From Phycisphaerae bacterium (GTDB taxonomy: Bacteria > Planctomycetota > Phycisphaerae > UBA1845): 64,000 nt of DNA. Position 1 is the first letter of the stretch; every line of letters starts with the position of its first letter. Location of the stretch: NCBI GenBank assembly GCA_963666835.2, contig CAXXGO010000006.1, positions 128,001 through 192,000 on the forward strand. Reading direction: 5' to 3'. Under the pieces are notes generated by a model. It saw only the letters and a program-made list of their open reading frames with translations, was not told the origin of the DNA and searched no databases. The translations under genes and the position numbers were made by a program. Of the stretch, positions 9,296-61,456 are shown one piece after another.

Positions 9296-9317
9296 CAACC
9301 CAATTGCTCCCCGGTTG

Positions 9318-9734: not shown

Positions 9735-9949
9735 GGGATCGGCGTAACCGGGGCATCCCACCTGTCGAATTCCATCCAACACGCGAGACCTGGATTCCAA
9801 ACACCTTCAGACGGGTCCGCCCCGGCACCACGGTGGCGTCTTCTTCAAACGGCCGTTACCATAATCGCTTCGGTAAGACGTGATTCATCCCGGCCGCCGG
9901 CCGTGCTGAAGGAACTGCATCGAACCATCTTTTGTCGAGGGACTGATCC

Positions 9950-11323
9950 GTGATTGACCAGGTTATTGCCCACATCGAGTCGAAGAAAGACGCCAACATC
10001 CAACGTATGATCGATCTGCTGCGGATCCCGAGTATCTCCACCGATTCCGAGCACAAGCCGGACATGGTCCGGGCCGCCGAGTGGGTCCGCGACTTCTTCG
10101 ATAAGGCGGGGATGGAATGCGAGATCATAAGCACGCCGGGGCACCCGGCCGTGCTGGCCGACAGCGGCCCTGTCGCCACCGGCGGCCCCACGGTGCTGAT
10201 CTATGGGCACTATGACGTGCAGCCTACTGGGGATGAATCGTTGTGGGACTCGCCGGCGTTCGAGCCTACGGTTCGCGACGGCGCGGTCTTTGCCCGCGGA
10301 TCCGCGGACGACAAGGGGCAGGTTCTGGCGCAGATGGTCGCCGCGGAAAGCTGGATGAAGGTGGCCGGCAAGCCGCCTATCAGGGTCAAGTTCCTCGTCG
10401 AAGGCGAAGAAGAGGTCGGATCGGCCAACTTGGAGGAGGTCATCCGCACGCACCGCGAACGCCTCGCCTGCGATTACGTCGCTCTCTCTGATACGCCGAA
10501 GTTCGACGCGCGGGTCCCGGCCATCACCTACGGTACGAAGGGCATGGTCTATAAGGAGATACTGATCTACGGGCCGAAACAGAATCTCCACAGCGGATCA
10601 TTCGGCGGAACGCTGGCCAACCCCGGGAACGTACTCGCGGCAATCATCAGCTCGCTCAAAAACGCCGACAACCGGGTGACCATTCCGGGCTACTACGACG
10701 ATGTCCGCGAGCTGACGGACCAGGAACGAACGAACATCAAAAACCTGCCGTTCGATGAAAAGGGATACCTCGCCGCGACGGGGGCGCCCGGGCTGCTGTG
10801 CGAGAAGGGCTTCAGTACCCTGGAAAGCCGCTGGGCTCGGCCGACCTTGGACGTCAACGGACTATTCGGCGGCTTCACTGGCGAGGGGGCGTCAACCGTA
10901 ATCCCGGCGAAGGTCATGGGGAAGGTGTCCATGCGTATCGTGCCGGATCAGGACCCCGAGAAGATCTCGGCCGCATTCGACCAGGCCGTCCGGGCCGCAA
11001 CCCCCGACTCGGTCAGGCTGGAGATCAAGACCCACGCAACTTGCCCGGCCTACGTGGGCAACCTCGATTCTCCCGGAATGAAGGCCGCGGCCGCGGCAAT
11101 GCAAGCGGGGTTTGGAGTGGCTCCTTTCTTCACCCGTGAGGGCGGTTCTTTGCCGATCCTGCCGCTGTTCAAGGAGGTCCTCGGGGCGGACTCCCTTATG
11201 ATGGGTTTCTGCCATCCGGACTGCAACGCACACGGCCCGAACGAGTTCTTCGGGCTGGACGACTTCCACAACGGAACCAAGACCGGGGCGCACTTTATGC
11301 GCCTGCTGGCGGATGGGAAGTAA
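9950..11323 (+). CDS. M20/M25/M40 family metallo-dipeptidase
   Basis: YGHYDVQP, ARGSADDKGQ, EGEEEVGS, LHSG, NAHGPNE motifs. Confidence 0.92.
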   Translation: MIDQVIAHIESKKDANIQRMIDLLRIPSISTDSEHKPDMVRAAEWVRDFFDKAGMECEIISTPGHPAVLADSGPVATGGPTVLIYGHYDVQPTGDESLWDSPAFEPTVRDGAVFARGSADDKGQVLAQMVAAESWMKVAGKPPIRVKFLVEGEEEVGSANLEEVIRTHRERLACDYVALSDTPKFDARVPAITYGTKGMVYKEILIYGPKQNLHSGSFGGTLANPGNVLAAIISSLKNADNRVTIPGYYDDVRELTDQERTNIKNLPFDEKGYLAATGAPGLLCEKGFSTLESRWARPTLDVNGLFGGFTGEGASTVIPAKVMGKVSMRIVPDQDPEKISAAFDQAVRAATPDSVRLEIKTHATCPAYVGNLDSPGMKAAAAAMQAGFGVAPFFTREGGSLPILPLFKEVLGADSLMMGFCHPDCNAHGPNEFFGLDDFHNGTKTGAHFMRLLADGK

Positions 11324-42300: not shown

Positions 42301-45300
42301 GCGCGTTGCCGTGCTGACCAGTGGACCACTCGTCCCCATCCATGTTCGTCAACGTGCCGTCCAAATCGCCGATGGACTCGTCCGAAGTCGTACCCGATGC
42401 TTCGTTGAACGACCACTGCGCCACCGGGGCCGGCGAAGCTGCCGAGGCGTCATCGCTAGCGTTGACGAGAATCGTCACCGTATCGATGCTGGTAGTCGTG
42501 CCATCGCTGACTTCAACCTGGAACGTAAGAGGCGTTTGCTCAGAAACATCCGGCGCCGTAAACGTCGGCTGCGTAGCGTTGGCATCGCTGAGCGTCACGG
42601 CCGGTCCGCCGGTCTGGGTCCAGGTGTAGGTCAGATTGTCGCCATCCAAATCGGATGACGCGGAAGCGTCCAGCGTTACCTCGACGCCTTCATCCACCGT
42701 CTGGTCCGCCCCGGCTTCGGCCACCGGGTCGTTGTTGGCCGCACCTACCGTCACATTGACCGTAGCCGTGTCCGTGCCGCCGTTGCCGTCGTCGACCGTA
42801 TAGGTGAAGCTGTCGGTGCCGCTAAAGTCAGCGTTCGGCGTGTAGGTAAACGTACCGTCACCGTTGTCGGTGACCGTACCGTTACTGCCCTGGGTGAACC
42901 CCGTGATGCTCAGAGTATCACCGTCGGGGTCGGTATCGTTAGCCAGCACATTGCCCGTAGTGACGGCCGTATCCTCGGTGGTGGCCACCGCGTCATCGAC
43001 AGCGTTTGGAGCCGTGGTCGTGCTTTCAACGGGTTCAGCGGCGGTCGTTGTCGGCGGGACCTTACCCCCGGAGTAGACGACCTTTGTAGGGGAGGTGAAG
43101 TCCTCGCTATAGGTGTAAGCGTTGTCACTCAGGTCGAACTGACCGCTCGCGCGCTCAACCGTGAGCGTGCCGCTCGTGAAGTTACCGACGGATAACGCAT
43201 CCAGATCGCCATCGATCGTGATTGTGGCGTTGTCGCTGATCTCGTCACCAGCCGAGATGGATCCGACATTGCCACCGACGTTAACGGTGCCCTTGAGGTC
43301 ATCCCCGACGTCGAGCGTCCCCAGATCGCCGCCCACATTGACGACGCCGAGTAGTTCGTCCCCGGACCCGTCAGCCTGGACGGAGATGGTAGTCACGCTG
43401 CCGGTGACGTCGACGTTACCGCTGAGCCTCCCGCCGGAAAGCGTGGTCAGATCCCCACCGACGGAGATGTCTTTGGCGATACCAGCGCCGGCCGTGATAC
43501 TGTCGGCACTACCGCCAATTGTGATCGCGCCATCGTATTTGATCTCATCACCGGCCGAGATGGATCCGACACTGCCGCCGATGGTGACGGAGCCCTTGAC
43601 GTCGTCCCCGACATCGAGGGTCCCCAGATCACCCCCTACGGAGAGGTTGCCGAGCATTTCGTTCGAACCACCCTCGGCCTGCAGCGTGATGGTGGTCACG
43701 CTTCCGGTGACGTTGACGTCACCGCTGAGTCCCCCGCTGGAGAGCGTGGTCAGATCCCCACCGACGGAGATGTCCTTGGCGATACCGGCGCCGGCCGTGA
43801 TACTTCCGGCATCACCGCCGATCGTGATCGCGCCGTCGTATTTGATCTCATCGCCGGCCGAGATAGATCCGACGTTGCCGCCGACGGTTACGGAGCCCTT
43901 AAGGTCATCCCCGATGTCGAGGGTCCCCAGATCACCGCCTACCGAGAGGTTGCCGAGCATCTCGTCCGAACCACCCTCGGCCTGCAGTGTGATAGTCCCG
44001 GCGTCTCCTGTAACACTGACATCGCCAACGATCCGGCTGACCTGCAGGGTAGTGAGGTTACCTGTGACAGACAAGTTCGCATCCAGGCTATCCGCTGACA
44101 CACTCCCGACATTGCCGTTTACGGTGACGTCAGCCTCGATGTCATCGTCAACGACTACCGAGTCGACGTGAGCGTTGACTGTAGTAGCAGTCTCGATGTC
44201 ACCTTCGCAGTGCAAGGTGCCGATAGTGCCGTTTCCCCCACCAACAGTGATCGCACCGATGCCGGTGCCGTCGGCAATCGTCACGGTGTCCAGGTTGACG
44301 TTGCTCGATAGGGCTCCCAATTCGGTATCCAGAGTTATGTTGTCGACGTTGAGATTCGCTCCGGTGAGATCGGTGATGCTCAGCGTGGAAGCGGTGCTTG
44401 CACCGTCGGCGTCGGAGATCGTCAGCGTGTTGGAATCGGCAGCATACGAGAAGTCAACGGTGCCGCCGCCGGTCATCTCGACCTTGAACGCCTCGTCTCC
44501 TTCGATGAAGACGCTCGTTCCGCTGACGGCCGTACCGGTGTAGTCACCGTGGAGGACGGTAGCACTTACATCCCCGAACTGAATGGACTCGATGTTCGAG
44601 TGATTGATCGTGAACGACTCGCCGTTGCCCATGTCAATGGTCAAAGCTCCGTCGCTGAACGAAGCGTCGGCCAAGTTATAGCCACTTAGATCCAGCGTGT
44701 CGTTGCCGCCACCGCCGTCGACCGTGTAGGTCTCCCCGGCCACAGCGTGGTTGAAGTCGATTACGTCATCGCCTTCGGTGCCGGCTATCTCGGCGAGCGA
44801 GCCCTCATAGGCTGCTGCTTCGACAACATCTATATCGGTGTCTATGCCCGCGGCCAGTTCCGCCTCACCGCCGGCGGATACGGCCTCGAGATCCCAGTCA
44901 CCGCCGGCCCCGGTAACGTCGTTCGAGCCGAATACTTCGGTGCCGGTTAAGCCCGACAGAGTATTGAGAAGATCCTGCCCTTCACCGGAACCGTCAACGA
45001 CGTTGCAGCCGTACGCATAGATATTGGCGTCTTCAGTGAAGTTGTCGGCCAGAGACTGCCATGCGGCCGATTGCTCTGCAGACATCTCAGAGGTAACCGT
45101 CTCGTTCCCGAGGTCGAATTGTCCACCCTCCCCGTGGGAGAGAATCGACAGCGATTCGATCTGGGCGCCTTCGGACTCGGACAGAGCTTCCACCCGAGCC
45201 AGTACGGCGGCCGCCGACTCGTTGGCACCGTCGTACTCGATTACCGTGGCGCCTTCTTCCACGGCATCCGCCAGCACCTCGGTATCTTCCAGGGTCGAGT

Positions 45301-45973
45301 CAATCAGCACGATCTTGAGCGGCGTTACCTCGGCCGAGGTTTCGTCTTCGATCAGACCCGCCTCGTCCGCATCGTCGTCAACGTCGGCCTCGACGCTATC
45401 CTCGGCGTCGTCGACAGCGTCGTCTTCCACAACGGCTTCGGTATCACCGGCCGATTCAGCATCCTGGTCCACCTGCTCGCCGTCGTCGACGTCGGGCAAC
45501 CCGGCCTCGGCTTCAGCTTCCGAGGTCTCGGTCGCTTCCTCTGCAGACACCGCCTCCTCCAAACCGGCATCAGCTTCGTCGACCGGCTCGGTGGCAAAGT
45601 CCGGGTCGGCGTCCGCGATTATGGGAGCACTTTCCTCCGACGTGGGTTCATCGAAGCCGTCGAAGAGTCCTTCACCACCATTGTCGTCAATCGTGGCAAT
45701 GGTGACCTCGGCCGCCTCGGCATCGAACACGTCCTCCCCGGCGCCGTCGGCTTCGGTGTCGGGCGCGTCATCCACATCGACCCAGGTGGCCGAAAGGAGA
45801 ATACGTTCTTCGAGCGCTTCAGTGCGGAACGACGGCTTGGCAACGGTGCCAAACTCTTCCTTGGTCTCACGGACCCGACGATCCTTGCGTTTGCGGATTT
45901 GACGTAGCTGCTTCTTGCGCTTGCTCACGTTGGTGCTCCCCGGTTTGGTTTGGACCTGCGCCTTATCGGTCAC
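39332..45973 (-). CDS. Giant acidic secreted protein: LEPR-XLL motif, DUF4347, beta-helical repeats, cadherin-like/Ig, PKD, LamG, two jelly-roll-like modules
   Basis: [27 protein letters not shown] (DUF4347); [40 protein letters not shown] (LamG). Confidence 0.85.
43230..44000 (-). repeat. 303-bp (101-aa) intragenic tandem repeat, about 2.5-3 copies
   Basis: ccccagatc recurs at 43319, 43622, 43925; unit [29 protein letters not shown]. Confidence 0.8.
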
Positions 45974-46977: not shown

Positions 46978-47120
46978 ATGCGCACCGACTGCAACACCGG
47001 TGGCCCCGCACCGCTCAGGAGCAGCGTCACACCCGCCCGGGTGAAGCCCCTCCGAGCGACACGTCCTGTAGCCCCACGGCGTAAGCCTGGGGCAACCGCT
47101 CGGGCCATCGCGGGTTTTGC

Positions 47121-47149
47121 GGCAGGTCTCGTGCCTCGACCTGCCCTGC
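47121..47149. repeat. Degenerate REP family A copy
   Basis: ggcaggtctcgtgcctcgacctgccctgc. Confidence 0.6.
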
Positions 47150-47324
47150 AGGTTCGCGCGCGGGGGGGCCATGCCGGGCGCCGGGACCGCACGCATGTGG
47201 TACGTCATCCTACGTCCCGATGATGCTCAATCGTCTTGGATGTCGACGCGGTAGGCACGCAGAGGACACAGCAAACCGAGCCGTGCCCACGCAAGCGTGG
47301 GGCATGCCACCCACCACCCGTTAC

Positions 47325-47437
47325 GAAAGGCGGGACGTCGTAAGTGACGTGGCTGACAAGAGTTACGAACGACAGGCAACCCCTGACAAACAGCGGGTGA
47401 TGGGACTTGAACCCACGACATTCACGTTGGCAACGTG
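47325..47437. repeat. Left att direct repeat, including the 3' 46 nt of tRNA-Gly at 47392-47437
   Basis: Matches 59018-59130 with 4 mismatches (47328, 47335, 47380, 47386). Confidence 0.95.
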
Positions 47438-47927
47438 TGAGCCCCGAGTACAAGCCTTGAAACCACAAGGGGTTACGGACGGGGGTGCATTCGCTTACAC
47501 CAATGCTTACACCGAATCTCAGAATCCGGTACGCCCCGAGGCCGCCGAAGTGGTCAACGAAACCGGGGGCGGAGACTCCGGCCGGCGGGCGTCCGACGAA
47601 GGCGACCGGACCGCGGAGGGGGCTGCCATCCCTCCCGAGGATGCGGCCGTTGCCGGGGCCGATGTCGAGACCAACGCCGGGCCGGATGCCGCGACCACCA
47701 CGGGGGCGGATGTCGAGACCGCCACGGGGGCGGGTGCTCAGGCGTTGGTCGATGCCCTGGCCATGCTGGACCGGCTTCCGCTGACGGACGCGGAGCGAGC
47801 CGAGGCCGTTCGTCGGTTGCTGGGCAGGCCGGGCGGACCGGGGGAGGTGCAACCCGAATTGGAGGACTCGACCGGACCGGAAGACACGACCGGCCGGGAG
47901 CCGACGGGAGGCGGGGCCGATGCGTGA
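47438..47927 (+). other. Orphan reading frame in frame with the integrase across att (putative attP-form C-terminal tail, 163 aa)
   Basis: ORF 47220-47927 reads KQRVMGLEPTTFTLAT, as the integrase end does, then continues CEPRVQ...GGGADA. Confidence 0.55.
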
Positions 47928-48249
47928 CCTTCCGTGCAATGTACTCCAGAGCTTCGGGCGTGTTGCCCGTGGGGTGCGGGTGTGCGTGGACGGTTGGCCG
48001 CGCGGACAGCGAATCCGGCGGGACCGGTTGCGGTGCGGAGCGCGCCAACGGGAGAGCCCCCGAAGTGTCCGTCCGCGGTTGGCTCGGTGCGGAATCGGGC
48101 GGAACGCGGTCTCGGTTGCCGGGAAAGGTAGCAAAGCTGTGGCGGGAATCTCACCAACGGGGGCGGAATGTCCCTTGAAATATCAGGACTCAATATGTTA
48201 CAGTGGCGGTTTCATGGTCTAGCTCGGTCTCTTGCTGTGAGGGGATATC

Positions 48250-50475
48250 ATGTTGCGAGCACGTTCCGCAATGTTCTTTGTTCTTGTGGTTCTGGTCTGT
48301 CTTCCGCCAGTGGGTGTCGGTGGAACCGTCACCGAGATCATTTACGGTCAGAACACCCTCAATTGGCCGCGCGGCATTGCCGTAGACGATGCAGGCGCCA
48401 CATACGTTGCAGGCTACCACAATGCTCTCAAGATCACGTCGGACGGAGTCATCACCGAGATCATCGACGCGCTAGGCGACGGCAAGGGAAACGCGCTCGA
48501 GTACTCCTCCGGCATCGCCGTGGACGATTCCGGAATCGTCTACGTCGCAGGATCCTACAGCAACAACGCCTTCAAGATCACTCCGGACGGAGCCATCACG
48601 GAGATTATCGACTCGACCGGCGATAACATGGGGAACGAACTTGGTGACCCGTCCGGCATCGCCGTAGACGACTCCGGGAACGTCTACGTTGCTGGAGGTT
48701 CAAGCAATAACGCTTTTCGGATTTCGCCGGACGGGATTATCACCGAAATGGTCGATCAAACTGGCGACGGATTGGGGAACACGCTTGATGGGCCGTGCGG
48801 CGTTTCCGTGGACGGTTTGGGCAATGCATACGTCGCTGGTGTTGCAAGTAACAACGCTTTCAAGATTACACCAGACGGAACCATCACCGAGATCATCGAC
48901 GCGACGGGCGACGGATTGGGGAACACGCTTGACGGGCCAGAGTGTATCGCCGTGGATAGCTCGGGCAATGCCTACGTGACAGGACACTGGAGTCACAACG
49001 CCTTCAAGATCACTCCGGACGGAGCCATCACGGAGATTATCGACGGGACTGGGGACGGCAATGGAAAGACGCTTGAGTGGTCGCATGGCATCGACGTGGA
49101 CGACTCCGGAAACGTCTACGTTGCTGGAGGTTCAAGCAATAACGCTTTTCGGATTTCGCCGGACGGGATTATCACCGAAATGGTCGATCAAACTGGCGAC
49201 GGATTGGGGAACACGCTTGACGGGCCAGAGTGTATCGCCGTGGACACTTCCGGAAACGTCTACGTTGCCGGGAAGCGAAGCAACAACGCTTTTCAGATTT
49301 CGCCGGACGGGATTATCACCGAGATCGTCGATCAAACTGGCGACGGATTGGGGAACACGCTTGACGCGCCGCGCGGCATCGCCGTGGACGATTCGGGCAA
49401 TGTGTACGTCGCTGGTGTTGCAAGTAACAACGCTTTCAAGATCACGCCGGACGGGATCATCACCGAGATCATTGACAGGACCGGAGACGGCAATGGAAGA
49501 GCGCTTGTGTGGTCACACGGCATCGCCGTGGACGATTCGGGCAATGTGTACGTGACAGGATACTGGAGTAACAACGCCTTCAAGATCACACCAGACGGAA
49601 CCATCACCGAGATCATCGACGCGACGGGCGACGGTATGGGGAACGCTCTTTTCGCCCCGTTCGGCATCACCGTAGACGAGTCAGGCAACGCGTACGTTAC
49701 TGGACTCAGCAGCGATAACGCCTTTCAGATTACGCCGGACGGGGTCATAACCGAGATCATTGACAGGGCCGGGGACGGCAGAGGAAACACGCTCGTCGAT
49801 CCGCGGAGCATCGCCGTGGATAGCTCGGGCAATGCCTACGTGACAGGACACTGGAGTCACAACGCCTTCAAGATCACTCCGGACGGAGCCATCACGGAGA
49901 TTATCGACGGGACTGGGGACGGCAATGGAAAGACGCTTGAGTGGTCGCATGGCATCGACGTGGACGACTCCGGAAACGTCTACGTTGCCGGAGCTTCAAG
50001 CGACAACGCTTTTCGGATCACGCCGGACGGGATCATCACCGAGATCATCGACTCGACGGGCGACGGCAGAGGACACACGCTTGATTATCCGACCGGTATT
50101 ACCGTAGACGCCTCAGGCGCCGCCTATGTTGCTGGATACTCCAGCCACAACGCCTTCAAGATTACGCCGGACGGGATCATCACCGAGATCATCGACTCGA
50201 CGGGCGACGGCAATGGAAGAACGTTCGGGTGGGCGCACGGCATCGCCGTGGACGACTCGGGCAACGTCTTCGTGACGGGATATGTCACTGACAACGCCTT
50301 CCGGATCGAACTATGCGACACGCTGACGGACTATCCCCTATTCGAGGACTGCTGGGCCGCAAGCGGGCCGGGGGCGGTTGTCGACCAGAGCTGCGCTTGT
50401 CCCGATGATGATGCCGACGGCGACGTAGATCTGGCCGACTTTGCCCGGTATCAATTGACGTTCGTGGGGCCGTGA
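48250..50475 (+). CDS. Secreted NHL/SBBP-type beta-propeller repeat protein (14 x 48 aa) with dockerin-like C-terminus; element cargo
   Basis: RBS GAGGGG; signal peptide; GIAVDDSGNVYVAG..SNNAFKITPDG repeats; DADGDVDLADFARYQ. Confidence 0.88.
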   Translation: MLRARSAMFFVLVVLVCLPPVGVGGTVTEIIYGQNTLNWPRGIAVDDAGATYVAGYHNALKITSDGVITEIIDALGDGKGNALEYSSGIAVDDSGIVYVAGSYSNNAFKITPDGAITEIIDSTGDNMGNELGDPSGIAVDDSGNVYVAGGSSNNAFRISPDGIITEMVDQTGDGLGNTLDGPCGVSVDGLGNAYVAGVASNNAFKITPDGTITEIIDATGDGLGNTLDGPECIAVDSSGNAYVTGHWSHNAFKITPDGAITEIIDGTGDGNGKTLEWSHGIDVDDSGNVYVAGGSSNNAFRISPDGIITEMVDQTGDGLGNTLDGPECIAVDTSGNVYVAGKRSNNAFQISPDGIITEIVDQTGDGLGNTLDAPRGIAVDDSGNVYVAGVASNNAFKITPDGIITEIIDRTGDGNGRALVWSHGIAVDDSGNVYVTGYWSNNAFKITPDGTITEIIDATGDGMGNALFAPFGITVDESGNAYVTGLSSDNAFQITPDGVITEIIDRAGDGRGNTLVDPRSIAVDSSGNAYVTGHWSHNAFKITPDGAITEIIDGTGDGNGKTLEWSHGIDVDDSGNVYVAGASSDNAFRITPDGIITEIIDSTGDGRGHTLDYPTGITVDASGAAYVAGYSSHNAFKITPDGIITEIIDSTGDGNGRTFGWAHGIAVDDSGNVFVTGYVTDNAFRIELCDTLTDYPLFEDCWAASGPGAVVDQSCACPDDDADGDVDLADFARYQLTFVGP

Positions 50476-50571
50476 CGACCGCGTCCGGTGGCGGTTGGGC
50501 GGCGCTCGAGGGTGCCGCGTACGGGCCGATTGACCTACCGGGTGACCACCTGGACCCCCCCGAAGCGGTTT

Positions 50572-50611
50572 GGGTCCTTCCGGAGGGGTAGGCCGGGGGG
50601 GGGGACCCCCC
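50572..50611 (+). other. Putative cos-like packaging site
   Basis: GGGTCCTTCCGG (lambda cosQ is GGGTCCT) then GGGGGGGGACCC, directly upstream of the TerS-like gene. Confidence 0.4.
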
Positions 50612-50676
50612 AGCATCGGCTGAAAAAAACGCGCGGGGGGTAAAAAAGTATGTCCTGTCCTACCGGAGTACAGACA

Positions 50677-51144
50677 ATGATCGAGACGACGACCGAGCCG
50701 TTGTATGCGTGTTCCCGGGTACAACTGGCTGCAATGCTGGGCGTAACCGAGCGGACGGTGGGCCGTTGGCTAAGCGACGGGGCGCCCAAGAAGGCCAAGC
50801 GGGGCTACAACCTTCGGGAGTGGTTCGCGTGGTGGGCTGCAAACACCGGGCAGACTCCGGACGCTGACGGCGGGACCAGTGCCCGCGAAGCTGACCGGCG
50901 GTGGAAGAACGCCCGGGCGAGCCGAGAGGAACGCAAGAACCAACTCGAAGCCGGGGAGGTCATCACGATGGACGAACACAAGAAGAGCCGCATGGCAGTC
51001 GTTGACTGCTTCGTCGGCATGTGCGACTCGGCGGGTGCGGAGTTGTCGACGATGTTGATTGGTAAGGGTCCTCAAGAGGTGCGGCGGATCGTGGATCGGT
51101 ATTGGAAAGATCGGCGGCGGGAGCTGATCGAGGCGCAACCGTAG
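50677..51144 (+). CDS. Terminase small subunit-like protein (lambda Nu1-type winged HTH)
   Basis: SRVQLAAMLGVTERTVGRWLSDGAP...YNLREWFAW then coiled coil ARASREERKNQLEAGEVI; alternative start 50650. Confidence 0.7.
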   Translation: MIETTTEPLYACSRVQLAAMLGVTERTVGRWLSDGAPKKAKRGYNLREWFAWWAANTGQTPDADGGTSAREADRRWKNARASREERKNQLEAGEVITMDEHKKSRMAVVDCFVGMCDSAGAELSTMLIGKGPQEVRRIVDRYWKDRRRELIEAQP

Positions 51145-51484
51145 CAGCTTGGCGCAAGGCCGCTTCGGGGGTCCGCACGTCGACCGCCGGGACACCCGAT
51201 CGGCACAAAATCGCGCAAGTAGACGGGCTCGAACGCCTTCCGAAGTGCTTTCTCGTATCCACCGGTCACACCCGAACATTTCCCGAACCCCTTGCAGGAT
51301 AACGACTTACGAGTTTGTGCCGCGTGGCTGTCGTTGGGGGGTGCTTGCGTTAGGCTTGCAGGCCGGTATCGTGGCTGGCATAGGTAGGCGGCTCATGACC
51401 GCCGATTGCTGACCGGTCGGACGTGCTTTCGTACAGTCCGGCGCGCCGACCGGTTGGCAGCCTCCCTCTGAAAGGACTGTACAG

Positions 51485-52909
51485 ATGCCCCAAGAAGCAG
51501 ACTGCCTCGTCGAGACTCCAGACGCCAAGAGGACGCCCACGCCGGCAACGAATCGCAAGGTAAGGATAGGCCGCAGAGACCTGGCGGAAGTGGAACGGCA
51601 TGGCGGATATTGGCACCTAGAGCAGAACGCCACAGAGCGCGCACCGTTCTTCCTGCAAGTGATTGACGTCAGACAGGTCTGTTCTGCATGCAAATTGACC
51701 GATGTGGCGGACGAAAAGGTGATTCTTTGGCTACACAAACTGGACAGAGTCTTCCGCGCTGAACAAGACGAATGGGCCCGTCCTGACGACCTTGTACTAG
51801 ACTTCGAACATCCGGATGGAGCACCACAGCGGAGATTCACTAAACGCGTTCTAGCGTTGTCGGCGAGCAAGCGAAGATCCTGCGTAACCGAACATACATG
51901 GAAGCCACGCTACACTGGTGATGTAGACCATTCCGGGGAGAGCTTCGCGGTGCAAGCGGGCTTCGCCGAACGAGGCACGGCCCAAACGTACTGTACGGAC
52001 TCCTGGAAGTGCTTGAGGGGTTTAAGCTGCATTCAACGCCTGGAGTTGGCTGTCCGCAATTATTCCTGGAGGTTCTCCGATTGCAGTCTTCCACAGGCTG
52101 AAGTTGTGGACGGAGTGGCCAGACGTGAATCACGATGGATGGGCGGGGCTCCTGAGCCAGACGAAGCGGGGCTGTTCATACCATGCTGGCGTTTTCTATC
52201 CACAAAACGGGCTGGCCGAAACGCTCTAGGATGCGATGTGTTTCGCCCGTGGTTACCCATGTTGTTCATCTGCAAAGATCAGAGTCTGCTGAAGCGAGCG
52301 TTGCAGGAATGGCATAACTCGATCTGCTGGCGCATCGCTAGGGATGTCTACAAGCACGTTCAACCTTTGCTTGCTGAACAACGGCGGCGAAGCTACCCGA
52401 ACGCACCCGGAGTGGACCCGGTCACTGAATGGATGTTGAGACCAAACAAGGATACGCATTACGAGGCAAAGTTGTTTCTAGAGCCTATCATGGAAAGGGA
52501 GGCACACCGCGGATTCATGGCACAAAACGGCGAGAGCTCTGCGGACGCGCAGCCGCCTGTTGGGGGTTCAAAGGCTGTGGGTGAGGACGTGGCCGCGGAA
52601 TCTACCTGCCCTAACGCGCCCCCCGAAGCGGATGTTCCGCACGATCAGCCTAAGAAACTGAAGCCGTCGTGGAAGAAGGCGAAATGCCTGTTCGAATGGG
52701 CGCTAGAGCACGTCGAGGGTGCCGACTCGATGACGTACAAAGAGATATTCGACTCGCTCCAGCACGATCCCCGTTGCGCCGGTGAAGGGCTGCCCGACAA
52801 ATGGGAGACGTTCGCCCACTATTGCCGTGAAGCTGGCGTCCGTCGCAATACTCCGCTTCGGGCGAGAAACCCGACGGGGAGTATACGGCGAGCATCCCAA
52901 CTACCGTAG
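51485..52909 (+). CDS. Hypothetical protein, 474 aa, compositionally atypical; possible regulator or defence cargo
   Basis: RBS AAGGA; visibly lower GC than flanks; no recognised family. Confidence 0.7.
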   Translation: MPQEADCLVETPDAKRTPTPATNRKVRIGRRDLAEVERHGGYWHLEQNATERAPFFLQVIDVRQVCSACKLTDVADEKVILWLHKLDRVFRAEQDEWARPDDLVLDFEHPDGAPQRRFTKRVLALSASKRRSCVTEHTWKPRYTGDVDHSGESFAVQAGFAERGTAQTYCTDSWKCLRGLSCIQRLELAVRNYSWRFSDCSLPQAEVVDGVARRESRWMGGAPEPDEAGLFIPCWRFLSTKRAGRNALGCDVFRPWLPMLFICKDQSLLKRALQEWHNSICWRIARDVYKHVQPLLAEQRRRSYPNAPGVDPVTEWMLRPNKDTHYEAKLFLEPIMEREAHRGFMAQNGESSADAQPPVGGSKAVGEDVAAESTCPNAPPEADVPHDQPKKLKPSWKKAKCLFEWALEHVEGADSMTYKEIFDSLQHDPRCAGEGLPDKWETFAHYCREAGVRRNTPLRARNPTGSIRRASQLP

Positions 52910-53134
52910 CTTCAGAGGTCCGACGTACCGAAAACGGACCGAAACGGACCCCCCCCAAAAAAAATCAGCGCCCCCATATCGCGATTAGTAGCTCTCAAAG
53001 GCGGATCTCAGTCTCTCCCGGCGGACGGTCCGGTCCGGTCCGATGGTCCGCTCTCCCCCTTTTTAAAGGCGAGCGTGGTTGATCGGTGGCAAACAGTCGC
53101 TGACACGGTCGCGACATGAAATGGGAGATTGGAC

Positions 53135-53392
53135 ATGAATTGTACTCAGAAGGCGAACGTGGGCGGACGAAGTGGCGAGGCCGATCGGGTACCGGTTGAG
53201 CTTGTCGACGTCGAAACGGTGGCTCGGGTGTTGGGGTGCTCCACCCGGACCGTCTACCGGCTGGCGGATTCCGGGAAGATGCCGAGGCCGGTCAAGCTGG
53301 GGCAGTTGGTTCGCTGGCCGCGGACCGAGTTGGAGCGGTGGATTGCCGACGGCTGTCCGGCCGTTCGCTCTTGTCGGAGGGCGAGCCGATGA
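53135..53392 (+). CDS. AlpA/excisionase family HTH protein
   Basis: LVDVETVARVLGCSTRTVYRL...MPRPVKLGQLVRWPRTELERWI; RBS GGGAGA. Confidence 0.88.
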   Translation: MNCTQKANVGGRSGEADRVPVELVDVETVARVLGCSTRTVYRLADSGKMPRPVKLGQLVRWPRTELERWIADGCPAVRSCRRASR

Positions 53393-53883
53393 GGGGGGCG
53401 GATAGCGGAATCACCGAAGGTGAACGGCGAAAGGCCGAAGCGCTCGCCCTGCTCGAATCGCGGCGGGAGCTGTACGTGCTCCGTGGGCGGCGGGCGTTGT
53501 TGCTCGCACTTCTGGCGACCGGGGAGGCTACGGCCGACGCGGTCCGGAACGTGGTCAAGCTTCCGCCGGGAATAGACCCGAAGCTATTCGGGAGCGTCCC
53601 GGGGGCACTCGCCCGCGGCGGGATCATCCGGAAGGCGGGGTTCACGGAATCGGATCGGCCGCAGGCCCATCGACGGCCGATTCTGGTGTGGCAACTGGCG
53701 GATCCGGCGGCGGCGCGGCGCTGGCTGGCGACTCACCCGGACCGCCAGGACCCGCAAGACGAGATCGGCGGCGCGCCGACTCTTCCGATTGAAAGCAGAC
53801 CCTCACCCCGTGACAGCACACCGGGCGAGGGATCAACAAGAAAGGAATATTCATGTACGGTTATAACAAACCGACACGATTAA
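53389..53883 (+). CDS. Hypothetical protein (possible winged helix)
   Basis: ATGA-coupled to the AlpA gene; GEATADAVR..LFGSVPGALARGGII. Confidence 0.7.
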   Translation: MRGADSGITEGERRKAEALALLESRRELYVLRGRRALLLALLATGEATADAVRNVVKLPPGIDPKLFGSVPGALARGGIIRKAGFTESDRPQAHRRPILVWQLADPAAARRWLATHPDRQDPQDEIGGAPTLPIESRPSPRDSTPGEGSTRKEYSCTVITNRHD

Positions 53884-54407
53884 GCGACATTCTAGCGGGC
53901 GAAACTCAACAGAATCTGGCCAAGCAATGGGAGAGCACCGAAGCGGCGCCGGACTTCGTCCTGTTGCCGTCCGGGACCTACGAAGCACACGTTCAGGCCA
54001 TCGAGCTTTTCAACGCTCGAACGGGGACGCCGGGCGTCAAGGTGACGTTTCGGCTAGCCGAGGGCGAGCACGCCGGGCGGAATCTCTATTCCGATCTGTG
54101 GCTAACACCGGCGGCACTCCCGCAAACGAAGCGCGATCTTGGGAAACTCGGGGTCCAGACGCTGGAACAACTCGAATCGGCGAAGTTGACTCCCGGGCGG
54201 ATTCGCTGCCGGGTGCGGGTTGCACTTCGGAGGGGGGATGACGGCTCCGAGTACAACTCTGTCCGCGGGTTCGATTTCGTCAAAGTGGAAGGACCCGAGG
54301 CGGACCCGTTCGCGCCTCCCGATGAGGCCGCGCCGGTGGCGCCCGAGAGCACTGAACCGGAGAACGGGGCGGACCCCGAGGAAGGGGGCGACGGTGTACC
54401 GTTCTGA
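53853..54407 (+). CDS. DUF669-like phage ssDNA-binding protein
   Basis: DFVLLPSGTYEAHV...GEHAGRNLY; acidic tail ending VPF; RBS AAGGA. Confidence 0.8.
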   Translation: MYGYNKPTRLSDILAGETQQNLAKQWESTEAAPDFVLLPSGTYEAHVQAIELFNARTGTPGVKVTFRLAEGEHAGRNLYSDLWLTPAALPQTKRDLGKLGVQTLEQLESAKLTPGRIRCRVRVALRRGDDGSEYNSVRGFDFVKVEGPEADPFAPPDEAAPVAPESTEPENGADPEEGGDGVPF

Positions 54408-55458
54408 TGATTTCCGCTTCGGGTTTCGGGTCTTGGGGGATTGTCGACAGCCGCGCCGGGTGGTCGACGCCGGCGCGGCGCTTACCGCCTATGCGGCTTG
54501 TCACGCGCGTTGCGAGTTGGACCGAGAATCCTACCTGTCCGCGTTCTGCTTTGACGCCGGGTTCCGCCGTCACCTGGACGGCACCAATTCAACCGCAGGC
54601 TATCACGGGCCGTGCTGGGCTTCCTGGCTTTGGTGGGATGTCGATGCACCGGACGGGGAGCTATCGACCGTCAGAGAGCCTCTGAGGCGGCTTATCGTGG
54701 CCGTGGTGGACGGCTTGCAGACTGACGAAGACGACTTGCTGGTGTTCCTCAGCGGGTCGAAGGGCTTCCATGTCGGCATTCCCACGGCGTTGTGGTCGCC
54801 CGAGCCGGGGCGGGACTTTCACCGAATTGTCCGGCGGTTTGCCGAGACCGTGGCCGAACGTGCCGGGGTCGACATCGACAACGGCGTTTATGACCGGGTC
54901 CGGTGTTGGCGGGCTCCGAACTCTCGGCATCCCAAGACAGGGCTTCACAAACGCAGGCTGACCGTGGACGAAGCTTCGCACCTGTCTACCGAGGCCCTGT
55001 TGACCTTGGCCAAGAAGCCGGAGCCTCTCGAGCTGCCGAAGCCGACCGCCCGAAGCGAACCGGCTTCCCGGTTGTGGGCCGAAGTGGCCGGGCAAGTCCG
55101 CAGTGAAGCCGAAGCCAAGGCCGCGCTCCCGAATGGCGGGACCGGACCGGTGAGGCTGAACCGCGGGACTCTCGAATACATCCGTAACGGGGCCGCGACC
55201 GGTGACCGGCATCGGCTGCTTTATTCCGCGGCGGCGGATCTGGCCGGGGCGGGGGCATCTTTGGGGCTTTGTGACGCGCTTCTGTCTGAGGCGGGGCTTG
55301 ACTGTGGGCTTCCACCGACGGACGTACGCCGAGCGGTAGAGAACGGATGGACAAGCGTTCAACCGCAGGTGCGGGACGCGTGCGAAGCCGTGAACGGGAA
55401 AGTGGTTACCGTACATTCAGGGCCGACCGAGGCCACTACGGAAGGGGGTGCCGCATGA
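54394..55458 (+). CDS. AEP-superfamily primase(-polymerase) with PriCT-like C-terminus
   Basis: WWDVD, SGSKGFH, D..VYD..R.WRAPNSRHPKTG, GDRHRLLY. Confidence 0.8.
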   Translation: MYRSDDFRFGFRVLGDCRQPRRVVDAGAALTAYAACHARCELDRESYLSAFCFDAGFRRHLDGTNSTAGYHGPCWASWLWWDVDAPDGELSTVREPLRRLIVAVVDGLQTDEDDLLVFLSGSKGFHVGIPTALWSPEPGRDFHRIVRRFAETVAERAGVDIDNGVYDRVRCWRAPNSRHPKTGLHKRRLTVDEASHLSTEALLTLAKKPEPLELPKPTARSEPASRLWAEVAGQVRSEAEAKAALPNGGTGPVRLNRGTLEYIRNGAATGDRHRLLYSAAADLAGAGASLGLCDALLSEAGLDCGLPPTDVRRAVENGWTSVQPQVRDACEAVNGKVVTVHSGPTEATTEGGAA

Positions 55459-56546
55459 ACGCGAACTACACTACTGCTGCCGATGTCTTCGTTGACTGGA
55501 GGGACACCCTATTTAACGGTGAGCGTCCGGTTCTGTATCCCGTGGGGTTGGGAGCGTTTGACCGGGTCGAGATCGGGCCGGGGCGCGTGGTGCTCATCGG
55601 CGGCTTACCGGGCGGCGGCAAAACCGCGCTGACTATGCAGTTTGTGGTCGAGGCATTGCGGTTGTCCAAAGACCTTAAGGCGGTGGTTGTCAATGTGGAA
55701 ATGACTCCGGCCGTCTTGCTGGACCGGCAGCTTGCCCGGTTGTCGGGGGTCCCGCTCGATGTTATCGCCAAGCGGAAGCTGGACGAATGCCACGCCGACA
55801 ACATCGATCAGGCGTTGGCTACCCTGGAGAGTATCGCGGACCGGCTGGCGTTCGTGCGACCGCCCTACGATCTGGCCAACACGGCCGAAACCGCGGACGA
55901 TTTCGAGGGGGAGCTGTTGGTCCTCGATTACTTGCAGCGGATCAAGCCGCCCGGGGAACACGCCGATCGGCGCGGCTCGGTTGATTCCGTTATGGGATAC
56001 TTGCGGGGGTTTGTCGATGTCGGTTGCGCGGTGTTGTGCGTCTCCGCAATGGCGCGCACGAAGGACCGGCGGGGGCGTTCGTCCTATGACGGGGACTCGT
56101 TGTCGCTGGCGAGCTTCCGCGAATCGTCGGAACTGGAGTACGGGGCGGATACCGCTTATGCCCTGACACCGAATCCGCGGGATCCGGAGTCAGTGACGTT
56201 GCGTTGTCTGAAACATCGACACGGGGAACCGGTCGATACGGCTTTGTGTTTCGACCGGCGGCTGCAACGCTTCACGCCCGAGGGTCCGGCGCCGACTCGG
56301 ACGAAGGCTGAACCGGGCAAGATGGCGGCCGCGCTTGGCGAGTTGTGGAGACGGACGCCCGCGGCGAATGATGACGACGGGGCGAGTCTTGAACTCGGAT
56401 TCGCCCATCATTCCACCCGGGCAGACCCTTCCGGCGATGGACTCGCCCGAACCTTCAACCGGCCGAACCAAGCGGGCGGGTGGCAACACCCGTCCGCGGC
56501 CGGGGAGGTCGACCGGGCGCTGGCAGACCCTGAACTACTTCTGTGA
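55455..56546 (+). CDS. DnaB-like (SF4) helicase/ATPase
   Basis: Walker A GLPGGGKT, NVEM, Walker B VLDYLQ, RESSELEYGAD, LKHRHG; ATGA coupling to the primase gene. Confidence 0.85.
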   Translation: MNANYTTAADVFVDWRDTLFNGERPVLYPVGLGAFDRVEIGPGRVVLIGGLPGGGKTALTMQFVVEALRLSKDLKAVVVNVEMTPAVLLDRQLARLSGVPLDVIAKRKLDECHADNIDQALATLESIADRLAFVRPPYDLANTAETADDFEGELLVLDYLQRIKPPGEHADRRGSVDSVMGYLRGFVDVGCAVLCVSAMARTKDRRGRSSYDGDSLSLASFRESSELEYGADTAYALTPNPRDPESVTLRCLKHRHGEPVDTALCFDRRLQRFTPEGPAPTRTKAEPGKMAAALGELWRRTPAANDDDGASLELGFAHHSTRADPSGDGLARTFNRPNQAGGWQHPSAAGEVDRALADPELLL

Positions 56547-56799
56547 CGTGACGATGCGGACGCTTTCCCCGTTGGCCGCGGCTCTGTGGTTTCAACTGTT
56601 CCGAAACACGAAGCCGGACGGGGTGGCGCAAGTGTCGCAAGTCGAGTTAGCGCGGCGAATCGGTAGGTCGGTGCGGGCGCTTCGGGCGGCACTCCGGCAA
56701 CTGCAATCGGCGGGGCTGGTGACGGTAATTCACCGCGGCTCGATGAACGCCGGATCAAGCATCTATCGGGTGCGAGCAAGGCGAAAGGATGACCGTTGA
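56368..56799 (+). CDS. HTH domain protein, putative replication initiator
   Basis: VSQVELARRIGRSVRALRAALRQLQSAGLV winged HTH; directly followed by iteron-like repeats; start uncertain. Confidence 0.7.
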   Translation: MMTTGRVLNSDSPIIPPGQTLPAMDSPEPSTGRTKRAGGNTRPRPGRSTGRWQTLNYFCDVTMRTLSPLAAALWFQLFRNTKPDGVAQVSQVELARRIGRSVRALRAALRQLQSAGLVTVIHRGSMNAGSSIYRVRARRKDDR

Positions 56800-56800
56800 C

Positions 56801-56911
56801 ACCGGAAGCATACTGCCGGTTTACGGAGGAAGTATGCTTCCGGTATACGGCGGAAGTGTGCTTCCGGTTACGGCGGCAGAATCGCGCACACACGCAGGAA
56901 GCAGGCTTCCG
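56801..56911. repeat. Iteron-like GGAAG-N4-CTTCC palindromes (putative origin)
   Basis: Copies at 56804, 56828, 56852 (24-bp period) and 56897. Confidence 0.7.
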
Positions 56912-57029
56912 CCTGTCCAGAATGGACCAGAACACGGGTGTGCACTGACGTGCACGGACCCGTAGGAAGACAGAAGAAGCGCGGCTGTGGGGCTTGACTC
57001 CGGCCGAACATAGGATGACGCTGGACATC

Positions 57030-57248
57030 ATGAAGAAGCAAACCACCGAATCACGAACGCTGACCGAGGTACTCCGCGAAGCTCTGAACAACGCCGAATC
57101 GGTGCGGGCGGTTGCCCGGGCGACCGGGCTTGAACAGGCTTCGCTTGTGCGGTTCCGGACCGGGCAACGAACGCTCCGACTCGACAAGGCCGACATCCTG
57201 GCCGCTTACTTCGGAATCGAATACCGCCAGACCAAACGGAAGGGGTAA
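57030..57248 (+). CDS. Small XRE/Cro-type HTH regulator
   Basis: SVRAVARATGLEQASLVRFRTGQRTLRLDKADILAAYFG. Confidence 0.8.
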   Translation: MKKQTTESRTLTEVLREALNNAESVRAVARATGLEQASLVRFRTGQRTLRLDKADILAAYFGIEYRQTKRKG

Positions 57249-57253
57249 CCGCG

Positions 57254-59131
57254 ATGGGACATGTTTACCGCCAAGAGTACACGAAGCCGCTACCCGACGG
57301 GGCCGAAGTATCCGTCCGCAAGGGGGAACGGGTCGCCCGGTGGGTCGATGGGCGCGGCCGGAAGCGGACCGCGAAGGTAACCACGGGGCGGGACGGAACG
57401 GACCGTATTCTCGTTCAGAGCGGCATCTACACCGCGAAGTACCGCAACGGGGCCGGGCACGTCGTGACGGTCGCGACCGGGTGCCGATCGAAGGATGCGG
57501 CATTGTCCATGCTGACCGAGCTTCAAGGCCGGGCCGACAAGGTGCGGTCCGGCGGATGGACCGCGGCCGAAGATGCGGTCCTGGACCACAAGAGCACGCC
57601 GATTGCCGAGCACGTTGCCGCTTACCTGGCCTACCTGCGGACGAAGCGGGGCAAGGGGGCTCGGGCGAGGGTATCACCGCACCACGTGGAGAACGTGCGG
57701 CATTGTCTCCGGATCGTCCCCCAATGCGGTTTCGAGCGACTCCGCGACTTGAACCGCGAAGCTGCGGAAAAGTGGGCGGACCGGGCCGAGGCCGACGGCA
57801 TGGGGGCTCGGACGATCAACGATTGTCTTTCGGCGTTGACCGCGTTCGGGAACTGGTGTGTCGAGACGAAGCGGATTATTGCGAACCCGTTTACCCGGTT
57901 ACCGATGCGAGACCAGAAGGCCGACCGGCGGAGAACTCGCCGAGCGCTCACGGGCGATGAACTCCGGCGATTGCTCAAGGTGGCGCGGCTCCGTCCGGTA
58001 GCCGAGTACGGGCGTAAGACCGTTCGCACCGCGGAAGGCGACTCCCCGACCGACAAGCGAAGCCGACGGACCTGGAAGAAAGAGCCGCTGACCTATGACG
58101 ACATCGAGGCCGCTACCGAACGGGGCCGCGACGCTCTGGCCAAGCGGCCGGACTATCTGGCCAAGCTGGAAGAACGGGGGCGAGGTCGGGCCCTGGTCTA
58201 CAAGGCGTTGGTCCTAACGGGGTTGCGGAAGGGGGAGCTTACCGCGGTGACGGTCCGGCACCTGGAGCTATCGGGACCGCAACCGTTCATCGTGCTCGAT
58301 GCGGCAGATGAGAAGGCCGGACGGGGAGCCGAGATACCACTTCGGGGCGACTTGGCAGAAGACGTGCGGGAGTGGCTGGCGGACCGGCTGGAGAAACTCC
58401 GAGCCGAAGCACGTGCCGAGGGCAGACCCGTTCCCGCCATGCTCCCGGCCGATCTTCCGGTATTCGACGTTCCGGCCGCGCTGGTGCGGATCATGGACCG
58501 GGACTTGGTGGCGTGTGGGATAGCCAAGCTGGTCACCGATGAGCGGGGCCGGGTGCGGGTCGACAAGAGCGACGATCGGGGCCGGACCGTGGACGTTCAC
58601 GCGCTACGGCACACGTTCGGAACCCACCTGAGCAAGGGCGGGGTTGCCCCACGGACCGCACAGGCCGCGATGCGACACAGCAATATCGACCTGACGATGA
58701 ACACCTACACCGATCCGCGGCTTCTGGACGTGGCCGGGGCACTGGACGTGCTCCCGTCCCTCCCGCTGGCCGGGGGGGGACCCGAAGCCGAGCAGCAAAG
58801 GGTGACCGGGACCACGGACCGGACGGTACCCGCGGGGCGTGTTCGGGGTCTCGACGGGACCGCCGACGGAAACCGGGCGGAGCCTCAGCGGACCGCGACC
58901 GGCCGGGCCGAACCCACCGAAAACAGGTCGAGTTTGCTTACACCAATGCTTACACCAAATTCCGGCAAACGGTGCATATTCGGGGCATCTGGTGACAAAG
59001 GCGCGACATCGAGCCCGGAAGGGCGGGGCGTCGTAAGTGACGTGGCTGACAAGAGTTACGAACGACAGGCAAGCCCTGTCAAACAGCGGGTGATGGGACT
59101 TGAACCCACGACATTCACGTTGGCAACGTGA
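57254..59131 (+). CDS. int: Tyrosine recombinase/integrase
   Basis: TGLRKGEL, HALRHT, MRHS, NTYT catalytic residues; stop codon lies within the antisense of tRNA-Gly. Confidence 0.93.
   Translation: MGHVYRQEYTKPLPDGAEVSVRKGERVARWVDGRGRKRTAKVTTGRDGTDRILVQSGIYTAKYRNGAGHVVTVATGCRSKDAALSMLTELQGRADKVRSGGWTAAEDAVLDHKSTPIAEHVAAYLAYLRTKRGKGARARVSPHHVENVRHCLRIVPQCGFERLRDLNREAAEKWADRAEADGMGARTINDCLSALTAFGNWCVETKRIIANPFTRLPMRDQKADRRRTRRALTGDELRRLLKVARLRPVAEYGRKTVRTAEGDSPTDKRSRRTWKKEPLTYDDIEAATERGRDALAKRPDYLAKLEERGRGRALVYKALVLTGLRKGELTAVTVRHLELSGPQPFIVLDAADEKAGRGAEIPLRGDLAEDVREWLADRLEKLRAEARAEGRPVPAMLPADLPVFDVPAALVRIMDRDLVACGIAKLVTDERGRVRVDKSDDRGRTVDVHALRHTFGTHLSKGGVAPRTAQAAMRHSNIDLTMNTYTDPRLLDVAGALDVLPSLPLAGGGPEAEQQRVTGTTDRTVPAGRVRGLDGTADGNRAEPQRTATGRAEPTENRSSLLTPMLTPNSGKRCIFGASGDKGATSSPEGRGVVSDVADKSYERQASPVKQRVMGLEPTTFTLAT
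59018..59130. repeat. Right att direct repeat
   Basis: Matches 47325-47437 at offset 11,693. Confidence 0.95.
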
Positions 59132-59156
59132 TGCTCTACCACTGAGCTACACCCGC
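59085..59156 (-). tRNA. tRNA-Gly(GCC), CCA not encoded
   Basis: gcgggtgtagctcagtggtagagcatcacgttGCCaacgtgaatgtcgtgggttcaagtcccatcacccgct folds as a canonical cloverleaf. Confidence 0.96.
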
Positions 59157-60259: not shown

Positions 60260-61456
60260 ATGGCCCCGAATATTCGGGACATTCGACACAAGATCGAACA
60301 CGGTGAGCCGCTCACCGCCGCGGATGGGGTGTGCTTATACGAATCGGTCGACATCCACACCTTGGGTGAGCTGGCCAACGGATTGCGGGAGAGCATCAAC
60401 GGGCGCCGCGCCTATTACAACATCAACCGGCATATTAACTACACGAACTACTGCGTATTGCGCTGCCGGTTCTGCTCGTTCTATCGCCCGTTTCCGACGG
60501 CCCGGGTGAATAAGGTCGGTCCTACTCCCGACGGCTATGAGCTGTCGGTGGACGAGATCGTCGGCCGCGCGAGAACCGCGTACGCCGCCGGCGCGACGGA
60601 GATTCACGTGGTCGGGGGCTTGCACCCCCGGCTGCCGTTTTCCTATTACACGGACATGTGTACCGCGGTGCGGGAGGCGTGCCCGCACCTGCACATTAAG
60701 GCGTTCACCGCGATTGAGATAATCCACTTCGCCCGGATCGCCAAGCCGCGGTTGTCGGTCGAAGTGGTGCTGCGCCGATTGCAGGAGGCCGGGCTGGGCA
60801 GTCTGCCGGGGGGCGGGGCGGAGATCTTCGACGACCGGGTCCACGACGACGCGTTTAAAAACAAGGTCGGCGAGACCGAGTGGTTCGAGGTCCACCGGAT
60901 CGCGCATGATTTGGGCATCTACACGAACGCGACCATGTTGTACGGTCACATCGAGACCAAGGCCGAGCGAATCGAACATCTGATCAAGCTTCGCAAGCAC
61001 CAGTCCGAGAGCCTGCGCCGCGGCAACGCCGGTTTCAATTGTGTCGTTCCTCTGTCATTTATTCCGGAGAACACCGCCTTGGCGCACTTGCCGGGGCCGA
61101 GCGGGCTGGATGATCTGAAAACGCTGGCGATTACCCGGTTGATGTGCCCGAACATCCCGCACATCAAGGCGTTTTGGATCATGCAGACGCCCAAGCTCGC
61201 GCAGGTGTCGCTCAACTGGGGGGTGGATGATATGGACGGCACCGTCGTGCAATACGACATCACCAAGCGCGAGGGCGGCGGAACCGTCCATCAGGAGCTT
61301 TCCGTCGACCGGCTCAAACGGCTCATGGTCGAAGCCGGTTGCGAACCTGTGGAGCGTGATACGCTCTATCGCAATATAACTCGCGACGAAACCTGTTGGC
61401 GGGTGGAAGGGGAAGCCTGGTCGGTGCCGTACGACGCAACCGCCTTGTCCGGGTAG
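60260..61456 (+). CDS. mqnE: Aminofutalosine synthase MqnE (CofH-family radical SAM)
   Basis: NYTNYCVLRCRFC, HIKAFTAIEI, SLPGGGAEIF, TNATMLYGHIE, HIKAFW, DDMDGT. Confidence 0.85.
   Translation: MAPNIRDIRHKIEHGEPLTAADGVCLYESVDIHTLGELANGLRESINGRRAYYNINRHINYTNYCVLRCRFCSFYRPFPTARVNKVGPTPDGYELSVDEIVGRARTAYAAGATEIHVVGGLHPRLPFSYYTDMCTAVREACPHLHIKAFTAIEIIHFARIAKPRLSVEVVLRRLQEAGLGSLPGGGAEIFDDRVHDDAFKNKVGETEWFEVHRIAHDLGIYTNATMLYGHIETKAERIEHLIKLRKHQSESLRRGNAGFNCVVPLSFIPENTALAHLPGPSGLDDLKTLAITRLMCPNIPHIKAFWIMQTPKLAQVSLNWGVDDMDGTVVQYDITKREGGGTVHQELSVDRLKRLMVEAGCEPVERDTLYRNITRDETCWRVEGEAWSVPYDATALSG

Follow-up and report, generated by a model that had tools for sequence, protein, structure and literature searches.

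An attachment site within an integrase gene

The window described here is a 64,000-nt stretch of the genome of a Phycisphaerae bacterium (GCA_963666835.2, contig CAXXGO010000006.1, positions 128,001..192,000 of the forward strand; coordinates below are window positions), and it carries an 11.7 kb element that is seated in a tRNA-Gly gene and whose tyrosine integrase gene (int) reads through the attachment (att) site. The element lies between two copies of a 113-nt direct repeat of 96% identity, at 47325-47437 and 59018-59130. The right copy (plus strand) comprises the 3' end of int and the 3' part of the integration target, an intact tRNA-Gly(GCC) gene on the minus strand at 59085..59156, the antisense strand of which provides the int stop codon. 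In the left copy the tRNA share is only 46 nt, a displaced 3' fragment of tRNA-Gly (47392..47437, minus strand), and the 67 nt outside this fragment (47325..47391, plus strand) resemble integrase 3' ends and align with three others in the same genome; a related element that once occupied the same tRNA probably left this part behind as a scar. Identity between the repeats ends at tRNA position 27, around the symmetric anticodon stem-loop, which suggests that crossover takes place in the anticodon loop, probably near 59123. No close relative with an empty target site was found; the 30 relatives compared have only the tRNA in common. Short palindromic repeats at 47270-47325 and 47100-47150 have many copies in the genome (19 matches for the first), and one of them adjoins the putative 67-nt scar.

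The integrated form of the integrase (Int) is a 625-aa protein encoded at 57254..59131 on the plus strand, matching PF00589 (E 1e-12) and phrog_1, with PF00589 and PF02899 its only Pfam matches. Its catalytic residues we take to be R325, K354, H449, R452, H475, and Y485, as assigned from the R-K-H-R-H-Y motif of tyrosine recombinases. Y485 is about 140 codons ahead of att, and the folded part ends near residue 505 (58768, where an initial annotation of this DNA had placed the end of the catalytic domain near 58770); the remainder is the left arm of attP, the att site of the free circle, translated as protein.

The same annotation had proposed that integration changes the C-terminus of Int, and the course of the reading frame is as it described. 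The int frame runs through the right repeat to a TGA stop, the last base of which is beyond the repeat and belongs to the tRNA-Gly gene, and at the left repeat it reads TGT and stays open to 47927, giving a startless tail frame of 163 codons including the junction codon (47438..47927, plus strand), which becomes the int C-terminus in the circle. Joining 59130 to 47438 in script, as excision would, yields one 2367-nt open reading frame (ORF) of 788 aa with a single stop. What was called a swap of C-termini is, however, a pure truncation at this locus, since the 788-aa form begins with the complete 625-aa form and the latter gains no host-coded residue. The tail also holds three degenerate 24-bp repeats (47655..47726, plus strand) that had been read as GADVET repeats; the repeats are present, but only two of the three copies encode GADVET and relatives lack them, and to judge from this comparison they are a local, variable linker. 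A separate tail gene in the integrated state was considered and set aside, there being in-frame starts (47397, 47400, and others) with no clear ribosome-binding or promoter-like site upstream.

Two further features, absent from the initial annotation, also fall within the fused frame. An arm-type direct repeat of two boxes with a 12-bp period is found inside int at 58936..58956 (plus strand), 187 nt from the centre of the anticodon loop, and a second lies on the opposite side of attP at 47493..47513 (plus strand), 63 nt from the crossover; the whole of attP, comprising left arm repeat, core, and right arm repeat, is inside the integrase reading frame. We regard these repeats as putative arm sites of Int. 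In most relatives the first type lies 161-163 or 183-185 nt from the T-loop and the second translates as xCTxxCT, and in 59 of the 60 cases measured an arm repeat is 28-34 codons from the T-loop peptide, a fixed spacing that is a DNA constraint. Elsewhere in the genome, integrase 3'-end remnants with arm repeats, from which the element bodies are gone, adjoin tRNA-Arg(TCT), tRNA-Gly(TCC), and a third att-like fragment (G000:C6:854760-855040, C5:158000-158320, and C6:1834600-1834790).

The tail is 70% guanine plus cytosine (GC), and the initial annotation had allowed that so GC-rich a frame might stay open by chance. The remaining two plus-strand frames across the rebuilt junction close after 7 and 0 codons, and base shuffles of the tail are open over the same length in 3.5% of cases, so that this locus alone is modest evidence against chance. 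Six public runs contain the element, with no RNA run among those listed, and contigs from four of the runs that carry it break at the att repeat, so that attP or attB joints could not be seen.

The open frame in related elements

Of the 80 best related genome loci, 78 carry titles at the level of Planctomycetota, Phycisphaerae, or lower ranks and two the title bacterium alone, and on a quick tree the window integrase groups with Phycisphaerae members. The tRNA targets of the family include Gly, Ala, Pro, Lys, Thr, Val, Asp, His, Arg, and Ser. In 55 of 57 tRNA-linked members (56 relatives and the window; L067, in which the T-loop could not be matched, and loci where ARAGORN called no tRNA were dropped) the int frame has no stop between the catalytic domain and the tRNA T-loop, a distance of 75-165 codons, as compared with 5/57 and 0/57 for the other frames. 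The int frame runs on the antisense strand of the tRNA in all three phases, in 48, 6, and 3 of the 57.

Circles were rebuilt for 33 elements, namely the window, 15 of the 80 genome loci with both ends, 13 att-matched pairs from a profile search of 24 genomes, 3 metagenome loci, and the second element of the window's genome; the att-matched pairs and the metagenome loci, which form the second and third sets, were paired by DNA repeats and not by frame. In 32 of the 33, including all 27 circles that score at least 10 bits, the best match to the two-helix motif of the tail, described below, is reached in the int frame without an intervening stop. The spacings take 26 distinct values between 146 and 408 aa. 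In L025 the right arm is read in a different frame and the helix is still reached in frame. Left out of the pairing were L047 (frameshifted int, repeat outside att) and L010, L074, and L015 (no tail locus sharing att), L192 was left out as a duplicate of L003, and L026 and L032, with no usable repeat, were left out of the 33-circle test; among the metagenome loci the motif pattern missed 14 of 80, several of which were examined individually.

Relatives thus lack stops before att, and their frames after att are non-random, which is the reverse of the outcome that the initial annotation had named as refuting its proposal. These counts indicate that the layout is real, family-wide, and selected, and that attP inside int is the usual arrangement in a large planctomycete family. 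The opposing explanation, in which GC-rich DNA is open by chance and the motif is a DNA signal, could draw on the GC content and shuffle rate of the window tail, but it is refuted by the frame statistics, and the excess of third-position changes in the helix and the natural fused proteins, both given below, run against it as well, so that we give it next to no weight.

When 151 genomes of the phylum were sampled, 8 of them, counting that of the window, had a tail match. This genome has a second family member (L081 and L082; G000:C5:27109-28990 and G000:C1:2140928-2141425), split over two contigs, with an integrase 82% identical to that of the window, a tRNA-Arg-like att fragment at both ends, no intact tRNA beside int, and the tail in frame. 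One relative (L026:832-2037 and 8919-10937) lies not in a tRNA gene but in a host gene labelled by eye as metalloprotease-like, and both of its new junctions are read through in frame.

The conserved helix pair of the tail

Conservation in the tail is limited to two features, the arm repeat and a two-helix motif of about 27 aa (47745..47825, plus strand), modelled by AlphaFold as two helices with a predicted local distance difference test score (pLDDT) of 88, which follows a linker that varies between 18 and 89 residues. There are 723 clusters at 50% identity that match the tail profile, and the top 150 range from 51 to 304 aa in length; 81 of these have a tRNA-antisense peptide in frame in front. 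The helix occurs in three sequence flavours. Between the two paralogs of the genome the proportions of nonsynonymous (pN) and synonymous (pS) differences are 0.06 and 0.43 in the helix and 0.43 and 0.49 in the linker; in sets of 11 and 6 helices the pN/pS ratios are 0.34 and 0.50 and rise to 1.1-2.8 when the frame is shifted, though the helices were selected by motif, which biases these values. Helix changes between sequences are in excess at third codon positions, some helix positions are near-invariant over 150 diverse sequences, and the tail of a strain from a single other sample differs by 20 substitutions and has lost a net 18 nt, with every change outside the helix. The low helix pN/pS and the near-invariant positions indicate that the helix pair is conserved under selection at the protein level, in a tail where the initial annotation had pointed out an amphipathic helix.

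It might be supposed instead that selection acts on translation through attP as such, carrying ribosomes past the antisense tRNA half and on to the cargo genes in the circle, with the helix a passive remnant. The linker does evolve almost neutrally, and with all element genes on one strand a circle can form one long transcript; the helix, however, has precisely the low pN/pS and near-invariance that a passive remnant should lack, and with a 27-aa motif conserved, read-through alone is insufficient, which makes this explanation improbable.

As modelled by AlphaFold, the natural fused protein P0030 consists of folded domains up to about residue 500, is disordered over residues 534-632, and has a confident helix pair at residues 635-669; the folded part resembles the lambda, Brujita, and Cre recombinases. 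The tail itself has no Pfam, NCBIfam, PHROG, PDB-sequence, or usable ESM Atlas match, its profile has no match in plasmids, and the helix model has no Foldseek match at E 0.001, the best (Z 5.3) being among generic helix pairs. A comparison with known small dimerisation helix pairs, such as the C-termini of XRE regulators and D/D domains, gave no clear sequence or fold match. A complex prediction for two copies of the helix pair scored 0.02, which is uninformative either way. A likeness of the first tail helix to the last helix of the catalytic domain reached at most 6.9 bits and was discarded as too weak to use. In L003 (5226-5453; also in L192) a second copy of the helix motif is located inside the element, away from att.

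The position of the helix pair near the end of most tails bears on a further alternative, that the tail controls the stability or amount of the protein and not catalysis, either because the tailless form, with its long unstructured end, is degraded whereas the helix pair caps the enzyme, or, conversely, because a protease adaptor recognizes the helix pair and so limits Int in the free state. Mycobacteriophage repressors provide a precedent, in that C-terminal degradation tags are removed from them on integration, and by homology to the P0030 model the integrated form of the window Int would end in about 120 disordered residues. Integrated ends nevertheless vary with tRNA and frame (FTLAT, FSLEG, QRSPN, and GALTN types) and share no end motif, and the 0-68 unrelated residues that follow the helix are unlike a terminal tag. 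We consider control of stability conceivable, and rather unlikely.

Fused, short, and broken forms

Natural fusions of the helix to the integrase occur in 4 of 120 homologous proteins by hidden Markov model (HMM), with P0110 recognized in addition by eye and P0273 from a search of longer proteins. L267 is a 9,644-bp metagenome contig with both ends inside int that holds the fused junction and element genes, an arrangement that would be expected of a circle or tandem copy, and at the tandem junction in L041 the upstream integrase reads into the tail of the next element. In L015 (10001-12130) an integrase is fused to the helix pair, and both the att peptide and the right arm are missing from between, which looks like a deletion of attP.

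Several observations weigh against a general role for the fused tail. In a set of 140 family integrases, 21 stop 34-40 aa after the catalytic motif; in a set of 150 whose stop is visible, 21 end no more than 59 codons from the motif, 3 at 60-79 codons, and 126 at 100 or more. The short label needs 6 changes on the quick tree, at least 4 of them by well-supported branches. Eight of the 11 family members on viral contigs are short, and a tail match was found in none of the 11 viral records, two long forms included, although these records are incomplete. L028 and L050 stop before att, and L049, a natural attP-like junction, is frameshifted ahead of the helix. Within the 33 circles, the helix of L033 is visible only by eye and five more score below 10 bits; the relatives are also not independent, the helix profile was trained on in-frame tails, and the circle of the window's own element is known from the in-script rebuild alone. 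The 21 short integrases, 8 of them on viral contigs, imply that part of the family can work without a fused tail; some short forms retain arm repeats and a tRNA att behind the stop. The viral-contig members (L133-L142 and L086) are on contigs of 10-58 kb.

One short form raises the possibility that the helix pair binds another factor, such as the element's excisionase (Xis)/AlpA protein, a nucleoid protein of the host, or a protein of the helper phage, and acts in trans, with fusion being one way of tying its expression to an intact attP. In L251 (11500-12000) int is short, and behind it lies a second ORF, preceded by a strong ribosome-binding site, which runs over an attP-like junction into a helix pair recognized by eye; in its relative L246 (11473-11800) the same frame is open into the tRNA. 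The existence of three helix flavours is a further point in favour. L251 is nonetheless a single case, scored by neither HMM; L255, L262, and L268 are without such a frame, and in 126 of the 150 members the frame is continuous with int, so that action in trans seems to us doubtful.

Gene content of the element

Every element gene is on the plus strand. Directly behind the tail is a cargo gene for a 741-aa NHL/SBBP beta-propeller repeat protein with a signal peptide (48250..50475), made of about 13 tandem 144-bp NHL/SBBP repeats. It is followed by genes for a terminase small subunit-like protein (50650..51144; phrog_57, E 5e-14), a 474-aa protein with no family match (51485..52909), an excisionase/AlpA-like helix-turn-helix (HTH) protein that is a candidate directionality factor (53129..53392; HTH_17, phrog_66), an ORF conserved in related elements with no clear family (53236..53883), a DUF669/phage single-stranded DNA-binding protein-like product (53853..54407), a primase of archaeo-eukaryotic type (54220..55458), a DnaB-like helicase (55347..56546), a winged-helix, replication-initiator-like protein (56335..56799), and, directly upstream of int, a Cro/C1-type HTH regulator (56994..57248). 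No capsid, portal, tail, or lysis gene was found among the 12 element proteins scanned, a set that covers short ORFs only partly and in which the 474-aa protein is unassigned. The satellite label given in the initial annotation suits a gene set of int, Xis/AlpA, primase/helicase, and small terminase in 10-15 kb, and by its genes alone the element would fit a phage-satellite-like class. Outside the element, the window encodes a 2213-aa acidic repeat protein with tandem-95 (cadherin-like) domains (39332-45973, minus strand) and an MqnE-like radical SAM protein of the futalosine pathway that falls just under the curated cut-off (60260-61456).

Proposed role of the tail

At this locus, the state of the DNA sets which protein is encoded, and the part that is switched is a selected two-helix module on a long tether. 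The initial annotation had offered a switch of Int activity, stability, or directionality, and the tail may act on one of these. The free circle encodes the integrase, a long variable linker that is attP in protein form, and the conserved two-helix module. Integration cuts the gene at the core and leaves an enzyme that is catalytically complete and tailless, and selection preserves an open frame all the way between catalytic domain and helix pair. In the model that we favour, the helix pair would be a protein-protein interaction module, by which Int protomers associate with themselves or one docks on another, and would raise the efficiency of attP x attB recombination. Loss of the tail on insertion would then damp the resident enzyme and stabilise the integrated state, excision would be carried out by the tailless form together with the Xis/AlpA protein at 53129, and the circle would recover the full enzyme for the next host. 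The idea of a damped tailless enzyme leans on the myxophage Mx8, in which the integrated form is less active and the tail is dispensable for excision. We put the probability that the tail is a tethered interaction module favouring integration and lost on insertion at roughly 0.5.

A more far-reaching version, which we offer only tentatively, would make the two-helix module a hitherto undescribed directionality factor of tyrosine recombinases, gated by attP, required for integration and made only with an intact attP, whether fused to Int or from an attP-spanning gene of its own as in L251. Elements in tandem would pass it on to one another, with chimeric integrases of full length restored at the inner junctions on the chromosome, as in L041.

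Comparison with known systems

Phage-inducible chromosomal island (PICI)-like satellites are about 12 kb in size and carry int, Xis/AlpA, primase-helicase, and small terminase genes. The element has this gene set in common with them, as well as the lack of detected virion genes, and an attP inside int is not known as part of the PICI description. The layout is not mentioned in the available part of PMC12884075, and a literature search, whose coverage excluded most subscription journals and supplements, found no paper on this family or on att-spanning integrases of planctomycetes.

In PMC4701971, an att site within an integrase is called rare in bacteria, and in PMC8371274 self-disrupting integrases are treated as archaeal; in this family an att site inside int is the rule across planctomycete islands. 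In practice, annotated integrases of the family are the cut form, hundreds of small "hypothetical proteins" beside tRNA fragments are orphaned tails, and mining these enzymes as integration tools requires the circle form to be cloned.

The serine integrases of streptococcal integrative and conjugative elements (ICEs) that target rumA are similar in having att inside the integrase gene and another C-terminus when excised (PMC4701971), but they differ in being serine recombinases of conjugative elements with a protein-coding target. The archaeal suicidal integrases of SSV1, pTN3, and pT26-2 (PMC8371274) also have att within int and tRNA targets, and tandem or multiple elements can likewise form chimeric genes. 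In those systems integration divides the gene into int(N) and a catalytic int(C); here the folded domains all remain in one protein, which loses no more than a distal module. As the catalytic domain is not separated, this is not an SSV-type suicidal integrase, and the likeness to SSV1-type elements drawn in the initial annotation is not apt; PF16795 (Phage_integr_3) had no match in the Pfam scan of the element.

The likeness drawn there to Mx8 is apt as architecture. In both systems a tyrosine integrase gene has attP in its 3' part, behind the catalytic domain, and integration alters the C-terminus and keeps the catalytic residues; IntP of Mx8 is turned into IntX on integration (PMC6070905, PMC4383910, and PMC4701971). 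The integrated Mx8 form is described as less active in PMC4701971, and a title cited in PMC11610982 calls the tail dispensable for excision. Homology between the two is absent from our comparisons, the best values being E 0.56 for Mx8 Int by BLASTP, -1.8 bits for the tail profiles, and 2.9 bits for the int profile, and tblastn of int against 50,697 phage records gave no match at E 1e-5. The present elements are distinguished from Mx8 in being satellite-like islands of 8-12 kb with many tRNA targets, in having as tail a two-helix module that is common to the family and follows a linker of no set length, and in the truncation without added residues at this locus. By these comparisons the system is not an Mx8 homolog, but it is Mx8-like in its working. 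Because the switched part is here reduced to about 27 conserved residues, the Mx8 question of what the lost tail does becomes a simple deletion experiment, for which natural tailless relatives serve as controls.

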